Source: a virus. From it: 64,000 nt of DNA. A program made the translations under genes and the position numbers. Location of the stretch: positions 32,001 through 96,000 of IMG/VR virus record IMGVR_UViG_3300046786_000502; one strand, given 5' to 3'. This document shows positions 33,081-57,417 of this stretch, in pieces (position 1 is the first letter of the stretch; every line of letters starts with the position of its first letter). The notes under the pieces were generated by a model. It was not told the DNA's origin. It saw only the letters and a list, made by a program, of their open reading frames with translations, and did not search any database.

Positions 33081-33972
33081 TAAAAAGATCGAAGACTATA
33101 AGATAATATTTGTTGTTACGTCCTATAAGGATAAGAACTTTATAGATTTTCTTAAGCACACATATGATGTAACACACCCACACTGTTATTTTGAGGTGTA
33201 TGAATCTAACCCAATTATTCATGATTTGGAAATCAAAAAGCTAGATTTTAATGTGGCATATGATTATAATATCTGGGATTCAATAGAGAGCCCAGTTTCT
33301 AAAAAGACTAAACGCCTAGAATGGGTTGCTAGAGATAACAGGAATGATAATGATGTTGTATGCTTTATAACACCAGACACTATCCTTTCCAAAGATTGGT
33401 ATGTCGATGTTATCAAGTTCTTAAAAGAAAATCCAAACTCAGTCATCTCTGGTAACGGTAAGGCAAAGATTGAGCAAAAGGATTATTTTTCATATCAGAT
33501 TAACTTTGAAGAGTCTAGCCAGTGGGAAAAAAATCAGATTGTGACAAAGCACTTTATGGTTGGTTTTGCTAGAACGTTCAAGCCTATCAAGGGCCCAGGG
33601 TATTTAAAGTACAATGGAGAAGATGAAGCGTGGACACTAGAGCTATTATCAAATAATATAGATATATATGGTGCACCATCATCCTTGTATACAGACACTA
33701 AGAATAGATCTATGGAGACTACTTATAAAACTTGGTCACCTGACCATAATTACAACGTAGTTGTTGATTTGATTAAGGGGAATAACCTTGACAAGTATAA
33801 CGTTACAGAACAGGGATTGGAAAAATTCTTGTCTGCTCATAGCTCCATAAATCCAGACGAGCTGTACCCACTACCATATCCTACAAATGATGTTGACTAT
33901 GACCCATACAATCTCAAGATGCATGAGGTTGATGCTAGAAGATTTATCGCTGGAGTAAAGGCTATTTACTAA
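33070..33972 (+). CDS. Degenerate GT-A glycosyltransferase-like protein (Gnt1-like)
   Basis: IIFVVTSYKD N-terminus and YNGEDE motif as in paralogs, but DSH replaced by TPD. Confidence 0.55.
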   Translation: MTFDKKIEDYKIIFVVTSYKDKNFIDFLKHTYDVTHPHCYFEVYESNPIIHDLEIKKLDFNVAYDYNIWDSIESPVSKKTKRLEWVARDNRNDNDVVCFITPDTILSKDWYVDVIKFLKENPNSVISGNGKAKIEQKDYFSYQINFEESSQWEKNQIVTKHFMVGFARTFKPIKGPGYLKYNGEDEAWTLELLSNNIDIYGAPSSLYTDTKNRSMETTYKTWSPDHNYNVVVDLIKGNNLDKYNVTEQGLEKFLSAHSSINPDELYPLPYPTNDVDYDPYNLKMHEVDARRFIAGVKAIY

Positions 33973-34592
33973 TGACAAATTTAATTCATGTTATACCTAA
34001 TTTTGTAGATGCAGAAGATGCAGAACTTTGGATGAAAGAAGCAGATCATCCATCTGCTAGAGAAGACTATCCAGATTATTATAATGATAGATTTGGTGGT
34101 ACAGCCTTACCATATAACGACAACACAAGATATTTAAATAAAAAGTATGGTCGTAAAGCTGCAGAATATGTTAAGCAATTGTATGGATTTAAAAGTCCAG
34201 TACATGTGTATAAGGTATTTATGAATCACACTACAGATGTTGGATATTCTGGTGGTGTACACACTGACTCAGTTGATCCAGAACCATGGATAGAGTGGTC
34301 AGCAGTTCTATATCTAGACGATAAGTTTACTGGGGCAAACCTACATTTTCCAAATCAGGACTATATCCATATACCAAAGCCACTAGAGGCTGTGATATTT
34401 CCATCTTCTGGAACATCGCACGTTCACGGCATATCAGAAATGAAGAGTGGTGAAAGATATTCTATAGTCGTTTGTCTGACAAGTCTTCCATGGAAAGCTG
34501 ATCCAGATATGCTGGAATCAGATGATAATATGGATTATGTTGGTGGATCGTGGGACATGGAAAAAGAGGAGAAAAAGCGTGGAATGGCGTAA
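33972..34592 (+). CDS. 2OG-Fe(II) oxygenase (P4Hc-like)
   Basis: VHTD, SAVLYL, HFP, IFPS, HVHG, SGERY. Confidence 0.85.
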   Translation: MTNLIHVIPNFVDAEDAELWMKEADHPSAREDYPDYYNDRFGGTALPYNDNTRYLNKKYGRKAAEYVKQLYGFKSPVHVYKVFMNHTTDVGYSGGVHTDSVDPEPWIEWSAVLYLDDKFTGANLHFPNQDYIHIPKPLEAVIFPSSGTSHVHGISEMKSGERYSIVVCLTSLPWKADPDMLESDDNMDYVGGSWDMEKEEKKRGMA

Positions 34593-35241
34593 AGACTATT
34601 ACAAGCCAAGAATTATCAAGAATGTTCTGACAGAAGAAGAGATTGATGAGCTAACTGCTGCTGTCCATTTTGCCAGAAACAATCAGGGATACTCTCCTGT
34701 TGTATTTAAGTGGTGGGGCAGACTATCTCATGATGTAACCGTTCCAGAAAGTGTTAAGAAAAAGTTTGACAGCATAGTCAAACAGATTGATCCAAGCTTT
34801 AATCAGGTAGATCAGAATTCATTTATATACTCTGGAATATATGGAAAGAAGACCCATCTACCGCCACACCAAGATGCTGGTGGAAAATTGGAAATAACCC
34901 TTGACTATCAACTAGATGCAAATGTTAGTTGGCCAGTAGTTGTAGAGGGCGAAGAGTTTGTACTTGAAAACAATGATCTGTTAATTTTTGGTGGGGCATC
35001 ATATGTGCACTGGAGAACAGAGAAATTTTTAACAGAAGATGAGCACGTTGACATGTTTAGTGTTAGCTATGCACGTCCAGAGTATGCTCAAGAATTTAAC
35101 AGTAACCGTGAAACCTACATGGCAGATGTTGACAAGAGAATGCTAGAGGCACACAGAATATATAATCCATCTTTTGATACAAGATCTTGCATAAGTAATG
35201 ACCAGATAGACCACTCAAGATGCAGTCACGAAGAATTATAA
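34579..35241 (+). CDS. 2OG-Fe(II) oxygenase-like protein (paralog of 13640/14197)
   Basis: LPPHQD, DYQLD, WPV, HWR. GTG start with gaggag SD. Confidence 0.7.
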   Translation: MEWRKDYYKPRIIKNVLTEEEIDELTAAVHFARNNQGYSPVVFKWWGRLSHDVTVPESVKKKFDSIVKQIDPSFNQVDQNSFIYSGIYGKKTHLPPHQDAGGKLEITLDYQLDANVSWPVVVEGEEFVLENNDLLIFGGASYVHWRTEKFLTEDEHVDMFSVSYARPEYAQEFNSNRETYMADVDKRMLEAHRIYNPSFDTRSCISNDQIDHSRCSHEEL

Positions 35242-35312
35242 ATAATATAAAGTTCTTTTTTTGGAAAATCAAGAATAGAAAAAAGCTTAAGAAGAAGGAC
35301 TTTATTTATTAA
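35220..35312 (+). CDS. Lys-rich micropeptide MQSRRIINNIKFFFWKIKNRKKLKKKDFIY
   Basis: Fills the gap; TAATG-coupled to the SGNH-like gene; C-terminus resembles ORF 51414-51512. Confidence 0.55.
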   Translation: MQSRRIINNIKFFFWKIKNRKKLKKKDFIY

Positions 35313-36121
35313 TGGGCTTGTTGTTTGACTTTGGGGAAGGCTCAAAAGGCAGTGGAATGAAGTTCTCAAGGGGACTGCAGTACAGTGGATATAGCCAAGA
35401 CTTTGGTCTCAGGGATTCCAGACTGAACCGTATTGAACAGCTAAATAGTTTAGGTTTCAGATGCGATGAGTTTACTAAAACCCACAATGGCAGACATATA
35501 TTATTTGCTGGATGCTCTTTTACATGGGGAGATGCATTGCCTAAAGAAGAGTCTTGGCCTTACCTTCTCTTAAAAGACCTAGAGAAAACTGAGCCAGTAA
35601 GTGGATTCTTTAGCGTTGCCTATCCTGGATCAAGCATTGCACATCAGATATCATTAATATTTAAATACATAAATGATTATGGAAACCCAGATGTAATATT
35701 TTTTATGATGCCAAATCTTGGAAGATTCTTTACTATTGTAGAAGATCATAACCAGATTACCTCATCAATTATAAAGCCAAACACCCACAAAGAATGTCCA
35801 CAGTCCTTTGAACTAGTGGCACACATATCTTTTGAGATGTACTCAATGCTAGATCAATATTGTAGGTCAAATAGTATCAAGCTGGTATCATCTTCTTGGC
35901 AACACTCAGAAGATAAAAATATAGTTGGAAACACTGCAGAATTATTTGATGGCAAGTTTGAAACCTTTTTCTCATACAGAGATATGGGCGAGGGTAAATG
36001 GATGTATGAATATATGCAAACAGATAAGGATGCCAAGATTTTAGCTAGTGATAATGCTCATCCTGGTAAAGCTAGACAGGCCTGGTTTGCACACATTATG
36101 CTGAATAAGTATTTAAATTAA
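35312..36121 (+). CDS. SGNH/GDSL-like hydrolase or acyltransferase
   Basis: NSLGFRCDEF, LFAGCSFTWG, PGSS, DNAHPG. Confidence 0.7.
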   Translation: MGLLFDFGEGSKGSGMKFSRGLQYSGYSQDFGLRDSRLNRIEQLNSLGFRCDEFTKTHNGRHILFAGCSFTWGDALPKEESWPYLLLKDLEKTEPVSGFFSVAYPGSSIAHQISLIFKYINDYGNPDVIFFMMPNLGRFFTIVEDHNQITSSIIKPNTHKECPQSFELVAHISFEMYSMLDQYCRSNSIKLVSSSWQHSEDKNIVGNTAELFDGKFETFFSYRDMGEGKWMYEYMQTDKDAKILASDNAHPGKARQAWFAHIMLNKYLN

Positions 36122-49296: not shown

Positions 49297-49982
49297 TTAA
49301 CGTTGTTGTTCTGATGTCTGGTCTTGGAACCAGATTCTATAATAGTGAATTTGAAAAGCCAAAGCCTTTTATAGAAGTAAATGGAAAAGAGATGTATCTA
49401 AGGTCTGCTCACAACTGTCCTGGTGATCGTTTTGTGTTTGTTGTTCAAAAAGAAAATTCTATTCGTTTCAACATGCACACCAAGGTTTTTTCTGAGTTTG
49501 AGTCTTCTGTGATTATTGAGTTGGATGGCGTTACATCAGGTCCTGCTGTATCTGCACTAAAAGCTGCAGAATGGATTGATAACGACAATGAACTGTTGAT
49601 TATAAATTCTGATCAAGAATTATTGTGGAATTATGATGACTTTATTTCTAAGGCAAGGGAGTCTGATGGTTGCGTTGTGGTTGTTGAACGAGAGGGAGAC
49701 CGCTGGTCTTTTGCAAAAGAAGTAGATGGTGTCGTTACACTGATAGCTGAAAAAAATCAAATAAGTAAAAATGCATTGTGTGGAATACATTATTTCAAAA
49801 AGGGTAGTGATTTTATTAAGTATGCAAAACAAATGTTAGAAGACGATAATAAAGTTAATAATGAATTCTATGTATCTAACGTATATAACTATGCCATTGA
49901 AGATGGCAAAAGAGTAACAATCTATAAAGCAGACGATATGCTTGATTATGGAACACCAGAAAGCTTGAGGGCCTATATATAA
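49293..49982 (+). CDS. Sugar-phosphate nucleotidyltransferase
   Basis: MSGLGTRF...KPKPFI, NSDQ, EKNQIS, NEFYVS, YGTPE. Confidence 0.85.
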   Translation: MINVVVLMSGLGTRFYNSEFEKPKPFIEVNGKEMYLRSAHNCPGDRFVFVVQKENSIRFNMHTKVFSEFESSVIIELDGVTSGPAVSALKAAEWIDNDNELLIINSDQELLWNYDDFISKARESDGCVVVVEREGDRWSFAKEVDGVVTLIAEKNQISKNALCGIHYFKKGSDFIKYAKQMLEDDNKVNNEFYVSNVYNYAIEDGKRVTIYKADDMLDYGTPESLRAYI

Positions 49983-51493
49983 TGCTTAATCTATTAGGAA
50001 TCAACAGATATGATCCAAAAGACATTGCACCACGTGTGATTGAAACTTTGAAAAATAGTCAAATAATTTTTGGAGAGCATGAGGATGCAGCCAAAGAATT
50101 TATGAAGATGGTTGGTGTAGACTATTCAAACAAAGAAGTCTATGAGGTAAATGCCAGCAATGAATCTAAATATGCTAGATGGGCGGTAGAACAGGTTAGG
50201 CTTGGTAAAAGCATTTCATTCCTTACTGGGGATGGGTATCCAGTTATTACAGATCCAGGATATAAGCTAGTAAATACGTTTATTCAAAATGCTGAAGAGA
50301 TTCGTGTATACCCTCAAGTATCTGCAATTGTTTCATCTGTTATCTTGTCTGGATATCTTGGTGCAAACAATGAGACATTCTTTTATGGTGGGATGCTAGA
50401 TTTCATGGACGAGAAGATGAAGCTAGAAGCAATGTCCTCAAGGGATACTATTGCGGTTTATCTGTTCCAGGGCACTTTTCCTGCAATAAGAAATCTTGAA
50501 GAAATATATGGACCAGAACGTGATGTAGTTATTTGTGTAAACATGGGTCACGACACACAACAGGTTATCCACACTAAGGTTGGATTTTTGGCCAATGGGA
50601 TTCCTGGAAAATCTATTTATGCTACTTTTGTAATTGCTCCAATAAATAGAGAGTCATTCTTTAATATGAACAAAATGCCAAACAACGTTCTTGAGTATGG
50701 CAACTTAAAAGAAATTGGAATACAGCAAAGAACTAATTATATTCATAATAGTTTTAATTTTAGGTGTGATGAGTTTACCCAAAACCATTCTGAAAAACTA
50801 CACGTTCTTTTTAGTGGTTGCTCTAATACTTGGCCACAGGCAATTGATGAGGACAGGGGCTGGGCAAAACAAATGTACTACAGCCTAGATCAATCATATA
50901 ATTTAAGTGGATACTACAATCTTGGAATGCCTGGTTCTACCATATCTGAGATTTGTCAAAATGTAATGAGTTATTGTAAGATTTTTGGCAAGCCAAAAAT
51001 AATATTTTTAAATCTCCCAGATGCTGGTAGAGAATCAAATATTCCAGAGAGTCCAAACAGTAAAGATGAGTATACATCTTTTGAAAAACAACAGTATGCA
51101 GACAAGGAATATGAAAAGCTTGAGGGATATTGTGCTGTAAACAACATATTGCTAATTACTTTTAGCTGGACAGACACTATGGTTAAATCTGGAGGCTACG
51201 TTCTTTCTAACCTTAAAGAGCTGCTTGGTAAAAATCACAAAAATGTATCTATATCAAATAAGTTTAATACGTATAAACATTTTGATAAAAATGATTTTAA
51301 AGAATATGTAGTGAAATACTTCGAGGATAACCCAGAAGATCATGATGCTGATGTGGCAAGGGATGCTGATCACCCAGGTCACGCCATACATTGGGCATGG
51401 TACAATTGCTTATATGAAATGTTTACAAAAAATACTCAATACCTTAGCTTCATTGAAGGCTTCAAGAAGGTACAAGAAAGCAATCAAGCGTAA
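49982..51493 (+). CDS. Fusion: RsmI-like (tetrapyrrole methylase fold) methyltransferase + SGNH-like domain
   Basis: N-half DIAPR...GDGYPVITDPG...PQVSA; C-half NFRCDEF, LFSGCS, NLGMPGS, DADHPG. Confidence 0.7.
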   Translation: MLNLLGINRYDPKDIAPRVIETLKNSQIIFGEHEDAAKEFMKMVGVDYSNKEVYEVNASNESKYARWAVEQVRLGKSISFLTGDGYPVITDPGYKLVNTFIQNAEEIRVYPQVSAIVSSVILSGYLGANNETFFYGGMLDFMDEKMKLEAMSSRDTIAVYLFQGTFPAIRNLEEIYGPERDVVICVNMGHDTQQVIHTKVGFLANGIPGKSIYATFVIAPINRESFFNMNKMPNNVLEYGNLKEIGIQQRTNYIHNSFNFRCDEFTQNHSEKLHVLFSGCSNTWPQAIDEDRGWAKQMYYSLDQSYNLSGYYNLGMPGSTISEICQNVMSYCKIFGKPKIIFLNLPDAGRESNIPESPNSKDEYTSFEKQQYADKEYEKLEGYCAVNNILLITFSWTDTMVKSGGYVLSNLKELLGKNHKNVSISNKFNTYKHFDKNDFKEYVVKYFEDNPEDHDADVARDADHPGHAIHWAWYNCLYEMFTKNTQYLSFIEGFKKVQESNQA

Positions 51494-51512
51494 GAAAGAC
51501 TATATATATTGA
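51414..51512 (+). CDS. Lys-rich micropeptide MKCLQKILNTLASLKASRRYKKAIKRKKDYIY
   Basis: Own TG-n-TACAAT element just upstream; its stop overlaps the carbamoyltransferase TTG start. Confidence 0.55.
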   Translation: MKCLQKILNTLASLKASRRYKKAIKRKKDYIY

Positions 51513-52927
51513 AAATCTTTGGCTTTAACGAAACCTCTCATGATGCTTCTGTGTCTGTAATTAAAAATGGAATGATTCTATTTGCTGGTCATGCTGAAAG
51601 ATATAGCAAAGAAAAAAATGACTGGTATACGAACAAAGAATTGTGGAATGACGCATATATGTGGGGCAAGCCAGATGCCATTGCATACTATGAAAAGCCG
51701 TGGCTAAAGAAGATTAGGCTATCTTTGCGTGGTGGTGCTGCAGACTGGAAGCCATTACATAGATATGATGTTGCATTTAAACATCACTACTCTCATGCAT
51801 GTGCAGGATACTATACTAGCCCATTCGACAAGGCAGTAATTGTTGTCCTTGATGCGATGGGAGAGTTTGCGACATCTACTGTTTGGTCTGGCGATGGCGA
51901 AGATATAAAGTTAGTCAAAGAAGTTAAATATCCGCTAAGCTTTGGTCTATTTTATACTGCTTTTACCAAACTAATAGGACTAAAGCCAAATGAGCACGAG
52001 TACATTCTTATGGGAATGGCAGGGTATGGAGATCCAACAACCTACTATGAAGACGTATTATCATATTTTCCCAGCATAACTAGCCAGAAGTATAACTACC
52101 ACAAGGGGATAACAGACTGGCCATACAACATTCTTAAAGAACAGGACAAGTTTGACATTGCTGCTGCTGTTCAGTTTGTATATCAAGAAAGACTAATGGA
52201 GTTTATGTCTAAAGTTAGACAGGACCTACCAGAATACAATAATCTTGTTTTTATGGGTGGGTGTGCCCTGAATGCCTCAGCTAATACAAAGCTTTGGGAT
52301 CTGTTTGATGATATTTGGATAATGCCAAATCCAGGAGATGCTGGAAGCTCTTTAGGTGCAGCTCTTGCACTACGTGGACAGCATGTTAAGTGGGAAGGCC
52401 CATATCTTGGGCATGATCTTGGTAACGAATACCCAGTTGATGCAATCTTTAATGAGATAATGACAAATAAAATTTGTGCTGTTGCTGCAGGTAGAGCAGA
52501 GTTTGGACCACGTGCATTAGGAAACAGAAGTATCTTGGCAGATCCACGTGACCCAGATATTAAAGATAAAGTTAATCTAATTAAACAAAGAGAACTCTTT
52601 AGGCCATTTGCCCCTGTAGTCATGGCAGAACATGCATCTGAATGGTTTGATATGGATTATGAATCTCCATACATGCAATACACACCCAAGTGCCTCAAGC
52701 CTGAGCTGATTCCATCAGTGGTCCATGTAGATGGTACATCTAGAGTTCAGACAGTCACAAAGGAGCAGCATCCAGGGCTGTACGAGGTTCTGAGACGTTT
52801 TTATGAGGCAACTGGAGTTCCAGTACTACTGAATACCAGTTTAAATGTAAAGGGCCAACCATTGCTTAATGACAAAGAAGACATTAAGCTTTGGGAGCAA
52901 ACATACAATACCAAGATTGTGATATAA
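51509..52927 (+). CDS. Carbamoyltransferase (NodU/CmcH family)
   Basis: HDAS, ERYS..K, HHYSHA, MGMAGYG, GGCALN, GDAG, EFGPRALGNRS, RPFAP, LNTS.N. Confidence 0.95.
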   Translation: MKIFGFNETSHDASVSVIKNGMILFAGHAERYSKEKNDWYTNKELWNDAYMWGKPDAIAYYEKPWLKKIRLSLRGGAADWKPLHRYDVAFKHHYSHACAGYYTSPFDKAVIVVLDAMGEFATSTVWSGDGEDIKLVKEVKYPLSFGLFYTAFTKLIGLKPNEHEYILMGMAGYGDPTTYYEDVLSYFPSITSQKYNYHKGITDWPYNILKEQDKFDIAAAVQFVYQERLMEFMSKVRQDLPEYNNLVFMGGCALNASANTKLWDLFDDIWIMPNPGDAGSSLGAALALRGQHVKWEGPYLGHDLGNEYPVDAIFNEIMTNKICAVAAGRAEFGPRALGNRSILADPRDPDIKDKVNLIKQRELFRPFAPVVMAEHASEWFDMDYESPYMQYTPKCLKPELIPSVVHVDGTSRVQTVTKEQHPGLYEVLRRFYEATGVPVLLNTSLNVKGQPLLNDKEDIKLWEQTYNTKIVI

Positions 52928-56197: not shown

Positions 56198-56422
56198 ATG
56201 AATATTGAAGCTTATGACAATGAGATTGATGAAAGACATCAACTATTGCTACAAAGAATAGATGATATCACATCTGAGATATATAGTCTTGGTGCCATCG
56301 AAGAAAGACAAGCCATCATGGGCAAGCTAAGAACCTTGATACACCTAAAAGATTACGAAAATGATGAGATTGCATCTGCTGTCCTTGGTTGGGCATATGA
56401 GCAGTTAGCATCGGCTGACTAG
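56198..56422 (+). CDS. Hypothetical protein
   Basis: 74 aa; TATAAT-N6-ATG. Confidence 0.65.
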   Translation: MNIEAYDNEIDERHQLLLQRIDDITSEIYSLGAIEERQAIMGKLRTLIHLKDYENDEIASAVLGWAYEQLASAD

Positions 56423-57252
56423 TGTCACCTGCTGCAAACCCACGTGATCCTAAATTTAGTTCTGCCTTATGGACTAGGACATCTGACAATACCAGACTAT
56501 CTGATTTTAAATATATCCCTGCAGAAAAAATACTAGACAATCTAAATGCATCTGAACTGCTGCATGGCATGAATGGGTTCAGGATGTGTGAACATTTTTC
56601 AAATCTTGAAGACTTGCCAACAAAAGATGAACACCTTATTAAGCTAAACAATAATAAGAAGAATGTGCTATTTGCAGGCTGCTCAATGACATCTGGGACT
56701 GGCTTAGAGATTGGTGAAAGATGGGTAGACAAGGTATATCTAGATTTAAATAAAGATAAAGAATATTCTGGACTGTTTAATTTAGGTCAAGAGGGTGGGG
56801 GTATGCAAAGTCAGATTAGGTACATATTTAAATATTGCCAAGAATATGGGATACCAGACCTAATCATTTTTAATATTCCAGACTTCTGGAGAATGACAAT
56901 TGACGATAATACATACAAGGTATACTCAAGCAGCCCATCTACCTATTCTCAGGATGCTGTGGGTAAGCTTGTATGCTCTGCTGGCAAGCAACTATATGAA
57001 TCCCTAGAGATCTTTTGTGATTTAAATAAAATTGATTTACTTTCATTTTCTTGGGACAGGGTAACAAATAGTATATTAAAAGATTTTAAGACATTCATGC
57101 TAATTGATGAAAAAGATATACAAAAAGAAATCTTCAATTATGATGATGGTGGCAAATATGCTATACTGGCAAGAGACGACATCCATCCAGGAACTGCCAC
57201 CCATATGGCATGGTCAAAAAGAATACTTGACAAATTAGCCCAAATGCTGTAA
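56422..57252 (+). CDS. SGNH/GDSL-like hydrolase or acyltransferase
   Basis: NGFRMCE, LFAGCSMTSG, NLGQEGG, DDIHPG. Confidence 0.7.
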   Translation: MSPAANPRDPKFSSALWTRTSDNTRLSDFKYIPAEKILDNLNASELLHGMNGFRMCEHFSNLEDLPTKDEHLIKLNNNKKNVLFAGCSMTSGTGLEIGERWVDKVYLDLNKDKEYSGLFNLGQEGGGMQSQIRYIFKYCQEYGIPDLIIFNIPDFWRMTIDDNTYKVYSSSPSTYSQDAVGKLVCSAGKQLYESLEIFCDLNKIDLLSFSWDRVTNSILKDFKTFMLIDEKDIQKEIFNYDDGGKYAILARDDIHPGTATHMAWSKRILDKLAQML

Positions 57253-57261
57253 ACTATTTTT

Positions 57262-57417
57262 ATGGCAAAACACAGAGAAGAAACAATGTATTGGCTAGAT
57301 CGTTTACGCATATACGTATTCTTTTTAAAGAATAGGTGGTACTTTTTCGTTAAGCCAAAGCTAAAAAAGAAACTAAATAATATAAAGAGTTATATTCAGC
57401 AACGCCTGGGGCAGTAG
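57262..57417 (+). CDS. Small basic aromatic protein (51 aa) overlapping the tRNA 5' end
   Basis: TTGACA-N17-TAAACT-N6-ATG; MAKHREETMYWL...KPKLKKK. Confidence 0.5.
   Translation: MAKHREETMYWLDRLRIYVFFLKNRWYFFVKPKLKKKLNNIKSYIQQRLGQ

Follow-up and report, generated by a model that had tools for sequence, protein, structure and literature searches.

Among the described systems closest to the element examined here is the microprotein DltX which, according to PMC12148441, takes D-alanine from DltB and delivers it to the catalytic serine of the SGNH protein DltD, the carrier residue being the invariant tyrosine of a C-terminal FXYXXF motif. The same source describes PatA as bearing this hexapeptide at its own C-terminus, where it auto-acetylates the tyrosine, and reports that the acetyl-tyrosine hexapeptide can donate its acetyl group to the SGNH protein PatB. 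The element in question is a micro-open reading frame (micro-ORF) of 32 codons at positions 51414-51512 of a 64,000-nt stretch of viral DNA (hereafter the window), which comprises bases 32001-96000 of the 116,893-bp IMG/VR virus record IMGVR_UViG_3300046786_000502. It begins within the 3' end of a gene with an SGNH-like domain and ends at the start of a carbamoyltransferase gene.

Two further systems bear on this locus. The biosynthesis of crocagin, a peptide made on the ribosome and modified after translation (RiPP), is described in PMC10070186 as employing a 21-aa precursor (CgnA) with a three-residue C-terminal core, the dioxygenase CgnC, the esterase-type hydrolase CgnD, which releases the core, the methyltransferase CgnL and the carbamoyltransferase CgnI. 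By the account of a 2026 preprint (PMC13174530), crocagin had been the only well-characterised RiPP to need a carbamoyltransferase until that preprint added a second; it also places on record the carbamoylation of a RiPP lysine by a NodU-like enzyme. In the saxitoxin cluster, the gene table of PMC2679770 assigns carbamoylation to sxtI and decarbamoylation to the GDSL protein sxtL, and lists sxtJ and sxtK (405 and 165 bp) as being of unknown function.

An earlier note, made from the sequence of the window alone, had singled out the micro-ORF as a 32-aa frame hidden in an alternative reading of the upstream gene, with its TGA over the TTG of the carbamoyltransferase, and every detail of this description agrees with the ORF listing and the sequence. 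The micro-ORF lies in the +1 frame of the 503-aa gene and its stop codon overlaps the TTG start (51509) of the 472-aa carbamoyltransferase. Its frame is open, stop to stop, from 51318; read from an upstream ATG at 51342 it would encode 56 aa. Ten of the last 30 residues of the 51414 ORF are Lys or Arg, and its N-terminus, MK followed by spaced Ile and Leu, resembles those of the other family members described below. The principal features of the locus are:

51414-51512, + strand: micro-ORF, 32 aa, Lys/Arg-rich, ATG at 51414, TGA at 51510-51512, ending KRKKDYIY
51414-51493, + strand: dual-coding overlap of the micro-ORF with the 503-aa gene, 80 nt
49982-51493, + strand: TP_methylase and SGNH-like fusion gene, 503 aa, with the SGNH-like domain at about 50702-51420, then a poorly conserved tail of about 22 residues over the micro-ORF
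51509-52927, + strand: NodU/CmcH-type carbamoyltransferase, 472 aa, TTG start, Pfam Carbam_trans_N/C

A microprotein family beside SGNH-fold enzymes and carbamoyltransferases

Peptides of this kind constitute a widespread, unnamed microprotein family tied to SGNH-fold enzymes and carbamoyltransferases. They are 26-40 aa long, rich in Lys and Arg, and end in [F/Y]-I-Y followed by zero to two further residues, the phage endings being KKD[F/Y]IY and the bacterial ones (K/R)(K/R)DP[F/Y]IY. Each probably consists of a basic, helical stretch of approximately 20-30 residues, followed by the invariant C-terminal [F/Y]-I-Y.

The earlier note had proposed a search for Lys-rich ORFs ending in D/P-(F/Y)-I-Y upstream of phage carbamoyltransferase and SGNH genes; the family was recovered in phages and bacteria alike. 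Sixteen phage carbamoyltransferase loci were collected, whose enzymes are 62-90% identical to that of the window. Eight of them (L003, L004, L005, L009, L014, L015, L016 and L018) hold a Lys-rich peptide of 26-33 aa that ends in [F/Y]-[I/T]-Y and has its stop at the start of a carbamoyltransferase, SGNH-like or 220-aa gene; under the filter used, no such peptide was found in the other eight (L006, L007, L008, L010-L013 and L017). A back-translated pattern for KKD[FY]IY, a stop and an ATG retrieved 35 IMG/VR stretches, 29 of which are Lys-rich micro-ORFs (14 distinct peptides). A carbamoyltransferase and/or SGNH-like gene is present in the locus of all 29, versus none of the six chance matches (L032, L038, L045, L046, L048 and L052). 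An alignment of the phage carbamoyltransferases served to collect 41 further loci from genome contigs, and 27 of these encode the peptide on the carbamoyltransferase strand, as a basic ORF or protein tail ending in [F/Y/H]-[I/L]-Y plus zero to two residues; the filter used detected none in the remaining 14. The genome records that carry the family are labelled Proteobacteria, Actinomycetota, Bacteroidota, Verrucomicrobiota, Myxococcota and Binataceae, in addition to phages. When 1.84 billion representative proteins were searched with a 27-member profile, 24 matches were obtained at E<=1e-3, and the 23 that were fetched all carry the motif and are mostly 30-52 aa long; on our reading, 22 carry DPFIY and one DPYIY.

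The tyrosine of the terminal motif is invariant in all 27 aligned members (the 51414 ORF and 26 others) and in all 23 fetched database proteins, the hydroxyl-bearing residue being retained whether the first aromatic is F, Y or H. In the bacterial members it is the whole peptide that is conserved, not the end alone. Members also differ from one another by synonymous codons, with AGA or CGC used for Arg and CTT, CTG, CTA or TTG for Leu. Bacterial members from genomes of 52-73% GC mostly end in (K/R)(K/R)DPFIY and have Arg as the predominant basic residue. As these high-GC members use Arg where the phages use Lys, with other codons, selection acts on the protein rather than on a DNA motif. The same observation led to the rejection, for the family, of the idea that KKDYIY is simply the translation of a purine-rich ribosome-binding stretch followed by an AT-rich spacer.

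Searches of the phage and bacterial peptides against Pfam, NCBIfam and PHROGs at lenient thresholds returned no model and nothing usable, and the weak library rows that appeared (MrpA, ClpS, SpaM and PHROGs, at E>=0.17) were taken as chance. Where the source records annotate such proteins at all, they are named 'hypothetical protein', and the ESM Atlas offers, as a lead, clusters without a name whose members are 36-37 aa long, matched at scores of 0.89-0.92 and with low recognition. A literature search on phage carbamoyltransferases with an SGNH protein, DUF5989 and DUF6071, in which the peptide motif itself was not a query, found nothing relevant. Many copies of the family do not exceed the length cut-offs that gene callers usually apply, and the annotation of phage glycan tailoring misses a recurring component. 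The recurrence of the peptide in other loci bears out the proposal that the 51414 ORF is a conserved small gene, overlooked by gene callers and tied to carbamoyltransferase and SGNH-like enzymes, and it is quite probably a real gene.

Some variants of the peptide were also observed. Two database proteins (P0021 and P0038) contain two tandem peptide units in a single ORF, both units of P0021 ending in DPFIYK. A second kind of basic peptide, of 28-29 aa and ending in KKSNGHIY, occurs downstream of the carbamoyltransferase in L055 (5518-5607) and L057 (2387-2473), with nothing coupled behind it; both are phage-like contigs binned into metagenome-assembled genomes (MAGs). The six contigs L054-L059 come from MAGs labelled Beijerinckiaceae, Methylococcus, Chitinophagaceae, Acidimicrobiaceae, Flavobacterium and Bacteroidia. 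They have 29-38% GC, their carbamoyltransferases are 64-69% identical to that of the window phage and their peptides are of the phage type; judged by these sequences, they are probably phage contigs binned with bacteria.

The arrangement of the genes is as characteristic as the peptide. In a layout table of 37 cases, the start of the peptide overlaps the preceding long ORF in 30, by 80 nt in the window and in L003 and by 1-32 nt in the other 28, and in 29 of the 37 the next long ORF starts no more than 4 nt from the peptide stop. The nested arrangement at 51414 is the extreme of the family's normal layout: the 80-nt overlap from which the earlier note took the term 'nested' is real, but the term overstates what is otherwise a usual overlap at the start. 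Family peptides lie among an SGNH-fold gene (DUF6071 in some loci), a NodU-type carbamoyltransferase and, often, a 2-oxoglutarate (2OG)-Fe(II) oxygenase, and the 51414 ORF fits this position, with an SGNH-like domain upstream and the carbamoyltransferase start over its stop. Ten bacterial genes preceding the peptide were scanned: three encode DUF6071, three give sub-threshold GDSL matches, three have no match (one of these being on the opposite strand) and one encodes an inositol monophosphatase. The bacterial proteins encoded before the peptide are distantly related to the phage SGNH-like proteins (BLAST E down to 3.5e-8 and 9e-10). Of nine phage proteins scanned that are encoded immediately ahead of the peptide, six are 2OG-FeII_Oxy_3 (PF13640; L004, L005, L018, L025, L055 and L058). 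The locus of a Bacteroidota member (L093) runs, in order, radical SAM, aminotransferase, short-chain dehydrogenase/reductase (SDR), two 2OG oxygenases, phosphatase-like protein, DUF6071, peptide, carbamoyltransferase and two methyltransferases, and a Reyranella locus lies among GT2 glycosyltransferases and a sulfatase.

Two other arrangements were seen in phages. One is a conserved family of approximately 207-220 aa, whose gene usually follows directly on that of the carbamoyltransferase and is coupled through TAATG or TGATG to the micropeptide ahead of it (L015, L023, L025, L031, L033 and L036); it has no Pfam match and faint BLAST links to 2OG oxygenases (E 2.6e-4 and 1e-3). In four IMG/VR loci (L022, L024, L034 and L041) the micro-ORF is followed by the start of a carbamoyltransferase-like ORF that stops after 24 codons, with no carbamoyltransferase match in the locus, and the enzyme may there be broken, interrupted or replaced.

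Alternative open frames are common in this DNA, 9 kb of the window yielding 100 ORFs of 25 aa and above, so that an open alternative frame carries no weight by itself. The ending and position of the ORF at 51414, and of the second micropeptide of the window at 35220, are nevertheless far beyond chance. Six-frame translation of the genome yields 13,060 stop-to-stop segments, 3,262 of at least 20 aa; four of these 3,262 end in [FY][IVT]Y, and the two of the four that are Lys/Arg-rich are exactly the 51414 and 35220 ORFs, each of which abuts the start of an SGNH-like or carbamoyltransferase gene. The ending motif was defined after both ORFs had been seen, and its independent test is the recurrence in other loci. 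The earlier note had drawn attention to the likeness of the two ends, and the two peptides are paralogues.

A physical link between the peptide and its neighbour is provided by natural fusions, which number 11 bacterial cases in two subfamilies. In one, the peptide is the in-frame C-terminal end of an SGNH-like protein (L063, L064, L071 and P0027); a protein 45% identical to this subfamily (L067) is unfused and ends before the peptide, which is there a separate, overlapping ORF. The second comprises seven Streptomyces DUF6071 proteins encoded just after the carbamoyltransferase, with a tail of approximately 60 residues ending in DPYIYP or DRFIYP, and their DUF6071 domain matches the whole 236-aa protein of L093 at E 1e-33 to 1e-40. 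These in-frame fusions imply that the peptide is physically tied to the SGNH-fold protein, and argue against a purely regulatory upstream ORF. Models of two natural fusion proteins, built on shallow alignments of 11 and nine sequences, have good SGNH cores and tails consisting of a helix and a low-confidence, possibly flexible end; no docking of the tail was seen in them but, with a predicted local distance difference test (pLDDT) score below 60 for the tails, they are uninformative on this point.

The window's own SGNH-like proteins match nothing in Pfam, the GDSL models included, even at E<=10, NCBIfam and PHROGs likewise yielded nothing usable for them, and a sequence search of the PDB gave weak matches to GDSL block I only. 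Their assignment to the SGNH/GDSL fold instead derives from the model of a homologue and from conserved residues. The AlphaFold model of the bacterial homologue L071, from a Geodermatophilus locus, has a confident alpha/beta core of the SGNH/GDSL fold, and Foldseek matched it to GDSL esterases at E of about 1e-5 to 1e-6 (best 3e-6, probability 1.00), with 92 SGNH-fold matches at E<=0.001. The crocagin hydrolase CgnD (8a2n) ranks 10th and the peptidoglycan O-acetyltransferase PatB (7tjb) 46th among the matches. An alignment of 11 sequences, the three window paralogues among them, has invariant Ser, Asp and His at the SGNH block I and V positions.

Candidate functions of the peptide

The earlier note had suggested an accessory subunit or a substrate peptide of the tailoring enzymes, and the evidence gathered here allows either. 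The reading that we prefer, albeit tentatively, is that the peptide acts as a DltX-like mobile tyrosine carrier between the carbamoyltransferase and the SGNH-fold enzyme. The carbamoyltransferase would place a carbamoyl group on the hydroxyl of the peptide's terminal tyrosine, whence the SGNH-fold enzyme would take it on to its catalytic serine and transfer it to the ultimate acceptor, which is probably one of the sugars in the glycan built by the surrounding genes. In the window phage and one relative, the gene for the SGNH domain reads 26 codons further in another frame, leaving 80 nt shared. Such a shuttle would explain the invariant tyrosine, the double association with carbamoyltransferase and SGNH-fold enzyme, and the fusions. 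In common with DltX and PatA, the family consists of a tiny protein or tail with an invariant tyrosine near the C-terminus in an F-x-Y context, and is paired with an SGNH-fold protein that keeps Ser, Asp and His and with a group-activating enzyme, being either free or fused to a partner. It differs from both in that the proposed group is carbamoyl and its donor a cytoplasmic, ATP-dependent, NodU-type carbamoyltransferase rather than an enzyme of the MBOAT (membrane-bound O-acyltransferase) type, and from PatA in that its fusions are on the SGNH side and not the donor side. If correct, the shuttle would extend the acyl-tyrosine principle from membrane acyltransferases to soluble carbamoyl transfer, and would address an old loose end, namely the reason for which SxtI and other carbamoyltransferases are accompanied by tiny proteins and a GDSL protein.

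Several observations count against a carrier of this kind. Unlike DltX and PatA, the family has no membrane helix, and its motif is cut down to [F/Y]-I-Y, often at the very end, without the trailing x-x-F of DltX. The carbamoyltransferase is evidently not strictly dependent on the peptide, since 8/16 phage and 14/41 genome loci lack it under the filters used. The flanking 2OG oxygenases and methyltransferases fit equally well with the peptide being a substrate. hhalign gave a probability of 3.8% for homology to DUF5989, over the four columns PFIY and with a DUF5989 alignment of three sequences, and homology was rejected as not demonstrable on this test.

The relationship to DUF5989 (PF19451), to which SxtK belongs in the view of the earlier note, holds in part. 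The FIY motif and the neighbours are alike: members of the new family, like DUF5989, are small, lie beside a carbamoyltransferase, and have a basic N-terminal stretch and FIY near the C-terminus. DUF5989 proteins are the established small companions of O-carbamoyltransferases, where SxtJ and the GDSL protein SxtL also occur. Membership is a different matter, as eight phage and ten bacterial peptides gave no match to the DUF5989 model at E<=10 (cut-off 27 bits) and none was found in a six-frame search of the genome. The fetched examples of DUF5989 are approximately 50 residues long, their basic N-terminus being separated by a hydrophobic membrane segment from an FIYTLF end, which fits FXYXXF; the new peptides pass from the basic stretch straight to D(P)[FY]IY with no transmembrane segment. 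DUF5989 itself is present at another locus in three of five bacterial genomes queried (scores 79-92 bits), two of three genomes with DUF5989 that were looked at also carry the new peptide at another locus, and in L098 DUF5989 lies between a carbamoyltransferase and a small membrane protein. The motif and company shared by the two are unlikely to be accidental, and homology between them is possible but, from the sequences, unproven.

The main rival to the carrier is that the peptide is the substrate of a crocagin-like RiPP pathway, with a basic leader and a C-terminal (D)(P)[F/Y]-I-Y core. On this account, which we consider rather unlikely, the core would be oxidised by the 2OG oxygenase, carbamoylated by the carbamoyltransferase and methylated by the methyltransferase, to be cleaved off by the SGNH-fold hydrolase. 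The likeness to crocagin is one of enzyme classes and not of orthology: in both cases an aromatic tripeptide is conserved at the C-terminus of a very short peptide, and the genes alongside encode a 2OG dioxygenase, an esterase-fold hydrolase, a carbamoyltransferase and a methyltransferase. Consistent with it are the oxygenase gene directly upstream of the peptide in six of the nine phage proteins scanned, the oxygenases, carbamoyltransferase and methyltransferases of the L093 operon, the methylase domain in the overlapped gene of the window, the tandem DPFIYK units of P0021, and the precedent for carbamoylation of a RiPP lysine by a NodU-like enzyme (PMC13174530). The rank of CgnD in the fold comparison points the same way, but CgnD is merely one of the 92 SGNH-fold matches and has no match at the level of sequence. 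Other features are difficult to accommodate. The leader is very basic, which is atypical and distinguishes it from CgnA, with which it was compared by description only; no CgnB/CgnE-type or RiPP recognition element (RRE)-type peptide-binding protein turned up, and no search was aimed at them; and a precursor fused to the C-terminus of its own hydrolase, as in the two fused subfamilies, would be unusual. A motif shared with a membrane protein such as DUF5989 is hard to reconcile with a precursor, and many of the loci, those of phages included, lie among glycosyltransferases or other glycan genes. The broader proposition that freshwater phages and many bacteria encode an undescribed RiPP pathway, with two precursors in the window phage, one of them nested in the gene of its own processing enzyme, we regard as doubtful; if true, it would be a third carbamoyltransferase-dependent RiPP class by the count of PMC13174530, and a virus-borne one.

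A non-covalent role is less probable still. The peptide would here be a tail or adaptor, whose basic helix tethers the SGNH-fold enzyme or the carbamoyltransferase to a membrane surface or anionic polymer and whose FIY acts as a docking plug, with no chemistry at the tyrosine. This would be in keeping with the in-frame C-terminal fusions of both subfamilies, with models in which a helix is followed by a low-confidence end, with the retention of charge while the residues change from Lys in phages to Arg in high-GC bacteria, and with the true membrane segment of DUF5989, which is missing from the corresponding place in the new peptides. That the last tyrosine is strictly invariant (27/27 aligned members and the 23 fetched proteins) is, however, beyond what a docking plug usually needs, particularly as the first aromatic is free to vary between F, Y and H, and the absence of docking in the fusion models, with the limits on alignment depth and confidence given above, lends the idea no help.

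Selection on the nested copy and possible routes to its expression

Whether the copy at 51414 is itself a functional gene can be addressed through its conservation. Its nested layout recurs in one other genome (contig L003/L002/L095): relatives of the 503-aa gene were found in one IMG/VR locus and in none of the metagenome contigs, the 56-aa form of the ORF leads to the same single contig, and a DNA-level search of phage records gave two matches of 4%, both over the carbamoyltransferase. The nucleotide comparisons that follow are between the window and L002, a single pair of 1,531 nt that aligns without gaps. Two elements of the overlap and its upstream flank are also considered:

51398-51406, + strand: TGgTACAAT, an extended -10-like string, 7 nt before the ATG; function not supported
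51427-51432, + strand: run of six A inside the overlap, also present in L003

In the overlap, 11 nucleotide differences are distributed 7/2/2 over codon positions 1, 2 and 3 of the main frame, versus 89/55/181 for the 325 differences in the rest of the gene; seven of the 11 thus fall on the third codon position of the micro-ORF (Fisher p=0.015; binomial p=0.039). In the peptide frame these amount to six synonymous and four non-synonymous codon changes, leaving 28 of 32 residues unchanged, whereas the enzyme tail over the overlap suffers eight residue changes (17/25 identical) and one synonymous codon change. The last 20 residues of the enzyme are 12/20 identical, compared with 19/20 in the block before. 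No 80-nt window that starts before gene offset 1352 reaches the bias of the overlap, and among 18 non-overlapping windows the overlap alone has five more first- than third-position differences. This is weak evidence, from a single pair, that constraint switches within the overlap from the enzyme frame to the peptide frame. The copy at 51414 would then exemplify a pair of genes that read the same 80 nt in different frames, the constraint visibly passing from one frame to the other. The last 30 nt of the micro-ORF and the 19 nt behind the enzyme stop are identical in both genomes, and a ribosome-binding stretch is a possible contributor to the 100% identity of those 30 nt in this pair.

Resemblance to the rest of the family is sensitive to the treatment of composition. 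With a family hidden Markov model (HMM) from which the sequences of the window and L003 had been left out, and with the null2 correction off, the 51414 ORF ranks second among the 3,262 segments (18.5 bits, E 3.3e-4), and an earlier family profile also placed it second (E 0.071). The top match to the HMM is the 35220 peptide, with E 5.7e-6 when bias correction is applied and 1.6e-10 when it is not.

Against this stand five points. When the null2 composition correction is switched on, the 51414 ORF is no longer within the top eight, and a bacteria-only profile recovers neither window peptide. No Shine-Dalgarno-like tetramer is found in the 20 nt before the 51414 ATG, in a phage whose long ORFs are preceded by GGAG, GAGG and AGGA at 8-10-fold enrichment. 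The ATG lies 80 nt before the enzyme stop, so that termination-reinitiation, which would serve the other members, cannot serve the nested copy. Finally, the nested form is confined to two genomes, and the codon-position test therefore has 11 differences to draw on (p 0.015-0.04).

The earlier note had credited the micro-ORF with its own promoter, the TG-n-TACAAT string just before the ATG. The string is present at 51398-51406, but a promoter role finds no backing: a consensus scan reports no site there, with 23 sites in the region versus an expected 29.7 +/- 5.6. TGnTAnAAT, moreover, occurs 57 times in the genome (33.5 +/- 6.1 in shuffled sequence), lies here within conserved enzyme codons and is not found at other family members. 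The product of the nested copy could conceivably arise by internal initiation, from a leaderless transcript that the -10-like string would drive (no support was found for this) or through a +1 shift on the A run at 51427-51432, which would recreate the fused form seen in bacteria. At that run, to speculate, a Lys-tRNA paired with the enzyme-frame AAA could slip forward by one base and pair again in the peptide frame. Contigs from the RNA libraries of two freshwater metatranscriptome studies match the locus at 100% identity, one of them spanning 51348-51594. They show presence in RNA libraries, and not starts, strand or translation; DNA carry-over is possible, and gaps in their cover are uninformative.

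These data also bear on the idea that the family is real but its nested copy an untranslated relic, with the downstream end kept as the ribosome-binding region of the carbamoyltransferase, or that the whole ORF is a chance frame. The absence of a Shine-Dalgarno-like element in a phage that uses them, an ATG buried 80 nt inside a translated gene, an HMM score that is insignificant with bias correction and a layout confined to two genomes would all be expected of such a relic, and a translation-initiation region would likewise be consistent with the identity of the last 30 nt. The idea is nonetheless improbable. The differences cluster on the third position of the peptide frame, as they do nowhere else in the gene, both genomes keep that frame open, and the enzyme tail over the region is the least conserved stretch of the enzyme (12/20). 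An explanation in terms of a DNA motif fails family-wide, as high-GC members keep the peptide with different codons, and the coincidence of ending and position is met by two of 3,262 segments. The 51414 ORF is very probably a real, overlooked gene of a large family.

A cis-acting upstream ORF, which would couple or gate translation of the gene behind it with a peptide that is irrelevant or acts on the ribosome, would suit the stop within 4 nt of the next start in 29 of 37 cases, the conserved residues right before the stop and the Lys-rich product. It is very improbable given that the peptide is the C-terminal tail of a full-size protein in 11 cases, that nothing is coupled behind it in L070 and the Streptomyces loci, that the gene behind varies (carbamoyltransferase, SGNH-like or the family of about 210 aa) and that the bacterial peptides are conserved throughout.

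Neighbouring genes and paralogues in the window

The 503-aa protein has a Pfam TP_methylase domain at residues 11-201, and its C-terminal half is 31% identical to the 35312-36121 protein and 28% identical to the 56422-57252 protein. The SGNH-like homology stops at about 51403-51420, the last 22 or so residues being an extension across the peptide gene. The carbamoyltransferase downstream is assigned by Carbam_trans_C (1.7e-54, 184.3 bits, cut-off 27) and Carbam_trans_N (8.3e-39, 134.4 bits, cut-off 24). Elsewhere in the window, the paralogous features are:

35220-35312, + strand: paralogue of the 51414 micro-ORF, 30 aa, ending KKKDFIY; its TAA and the ATG of the SGNH-like gene overlap (TAATG), and its start overlaps the upstream gene by 22 nt
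35312-36121, + strand: SGNH-like protein, 269 aa, paralogue of the C-terminal half of the 49982-51493 product
56422-57252, + strand: SGNH-like protein, 276 aa, the third of the paralogues, not preceded by an [F/Y]IY micro-ORF

The orthologue of the 35220 peptide in L053 differs from it by 4 nt, three of them at third codon positions. Ahead of this peptide, the genes at 33972-34592 and 34522-35241 overlap one another by 71 nt, and the product of the former, for which Pfam gives no match, is weakly similar by BLAST (E 4.5e-6) to the 2OG oxygenases encoded ahead of the peptide in other phages.

Directly behind the third SGNH-like gene lies a basic, aromatic-rich ORF of 51 aa (57262-57417). Its end is not [F/Y]IY and it is outside the top eight of the family HMM; it could be a decayed or divergent relative of the family. 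In one of the collected phage loci (L013), the sequence about 80 nt upstream of 565, just before the carbamoyltransferase, looks by eye like a tRNA gene ending in CCA.

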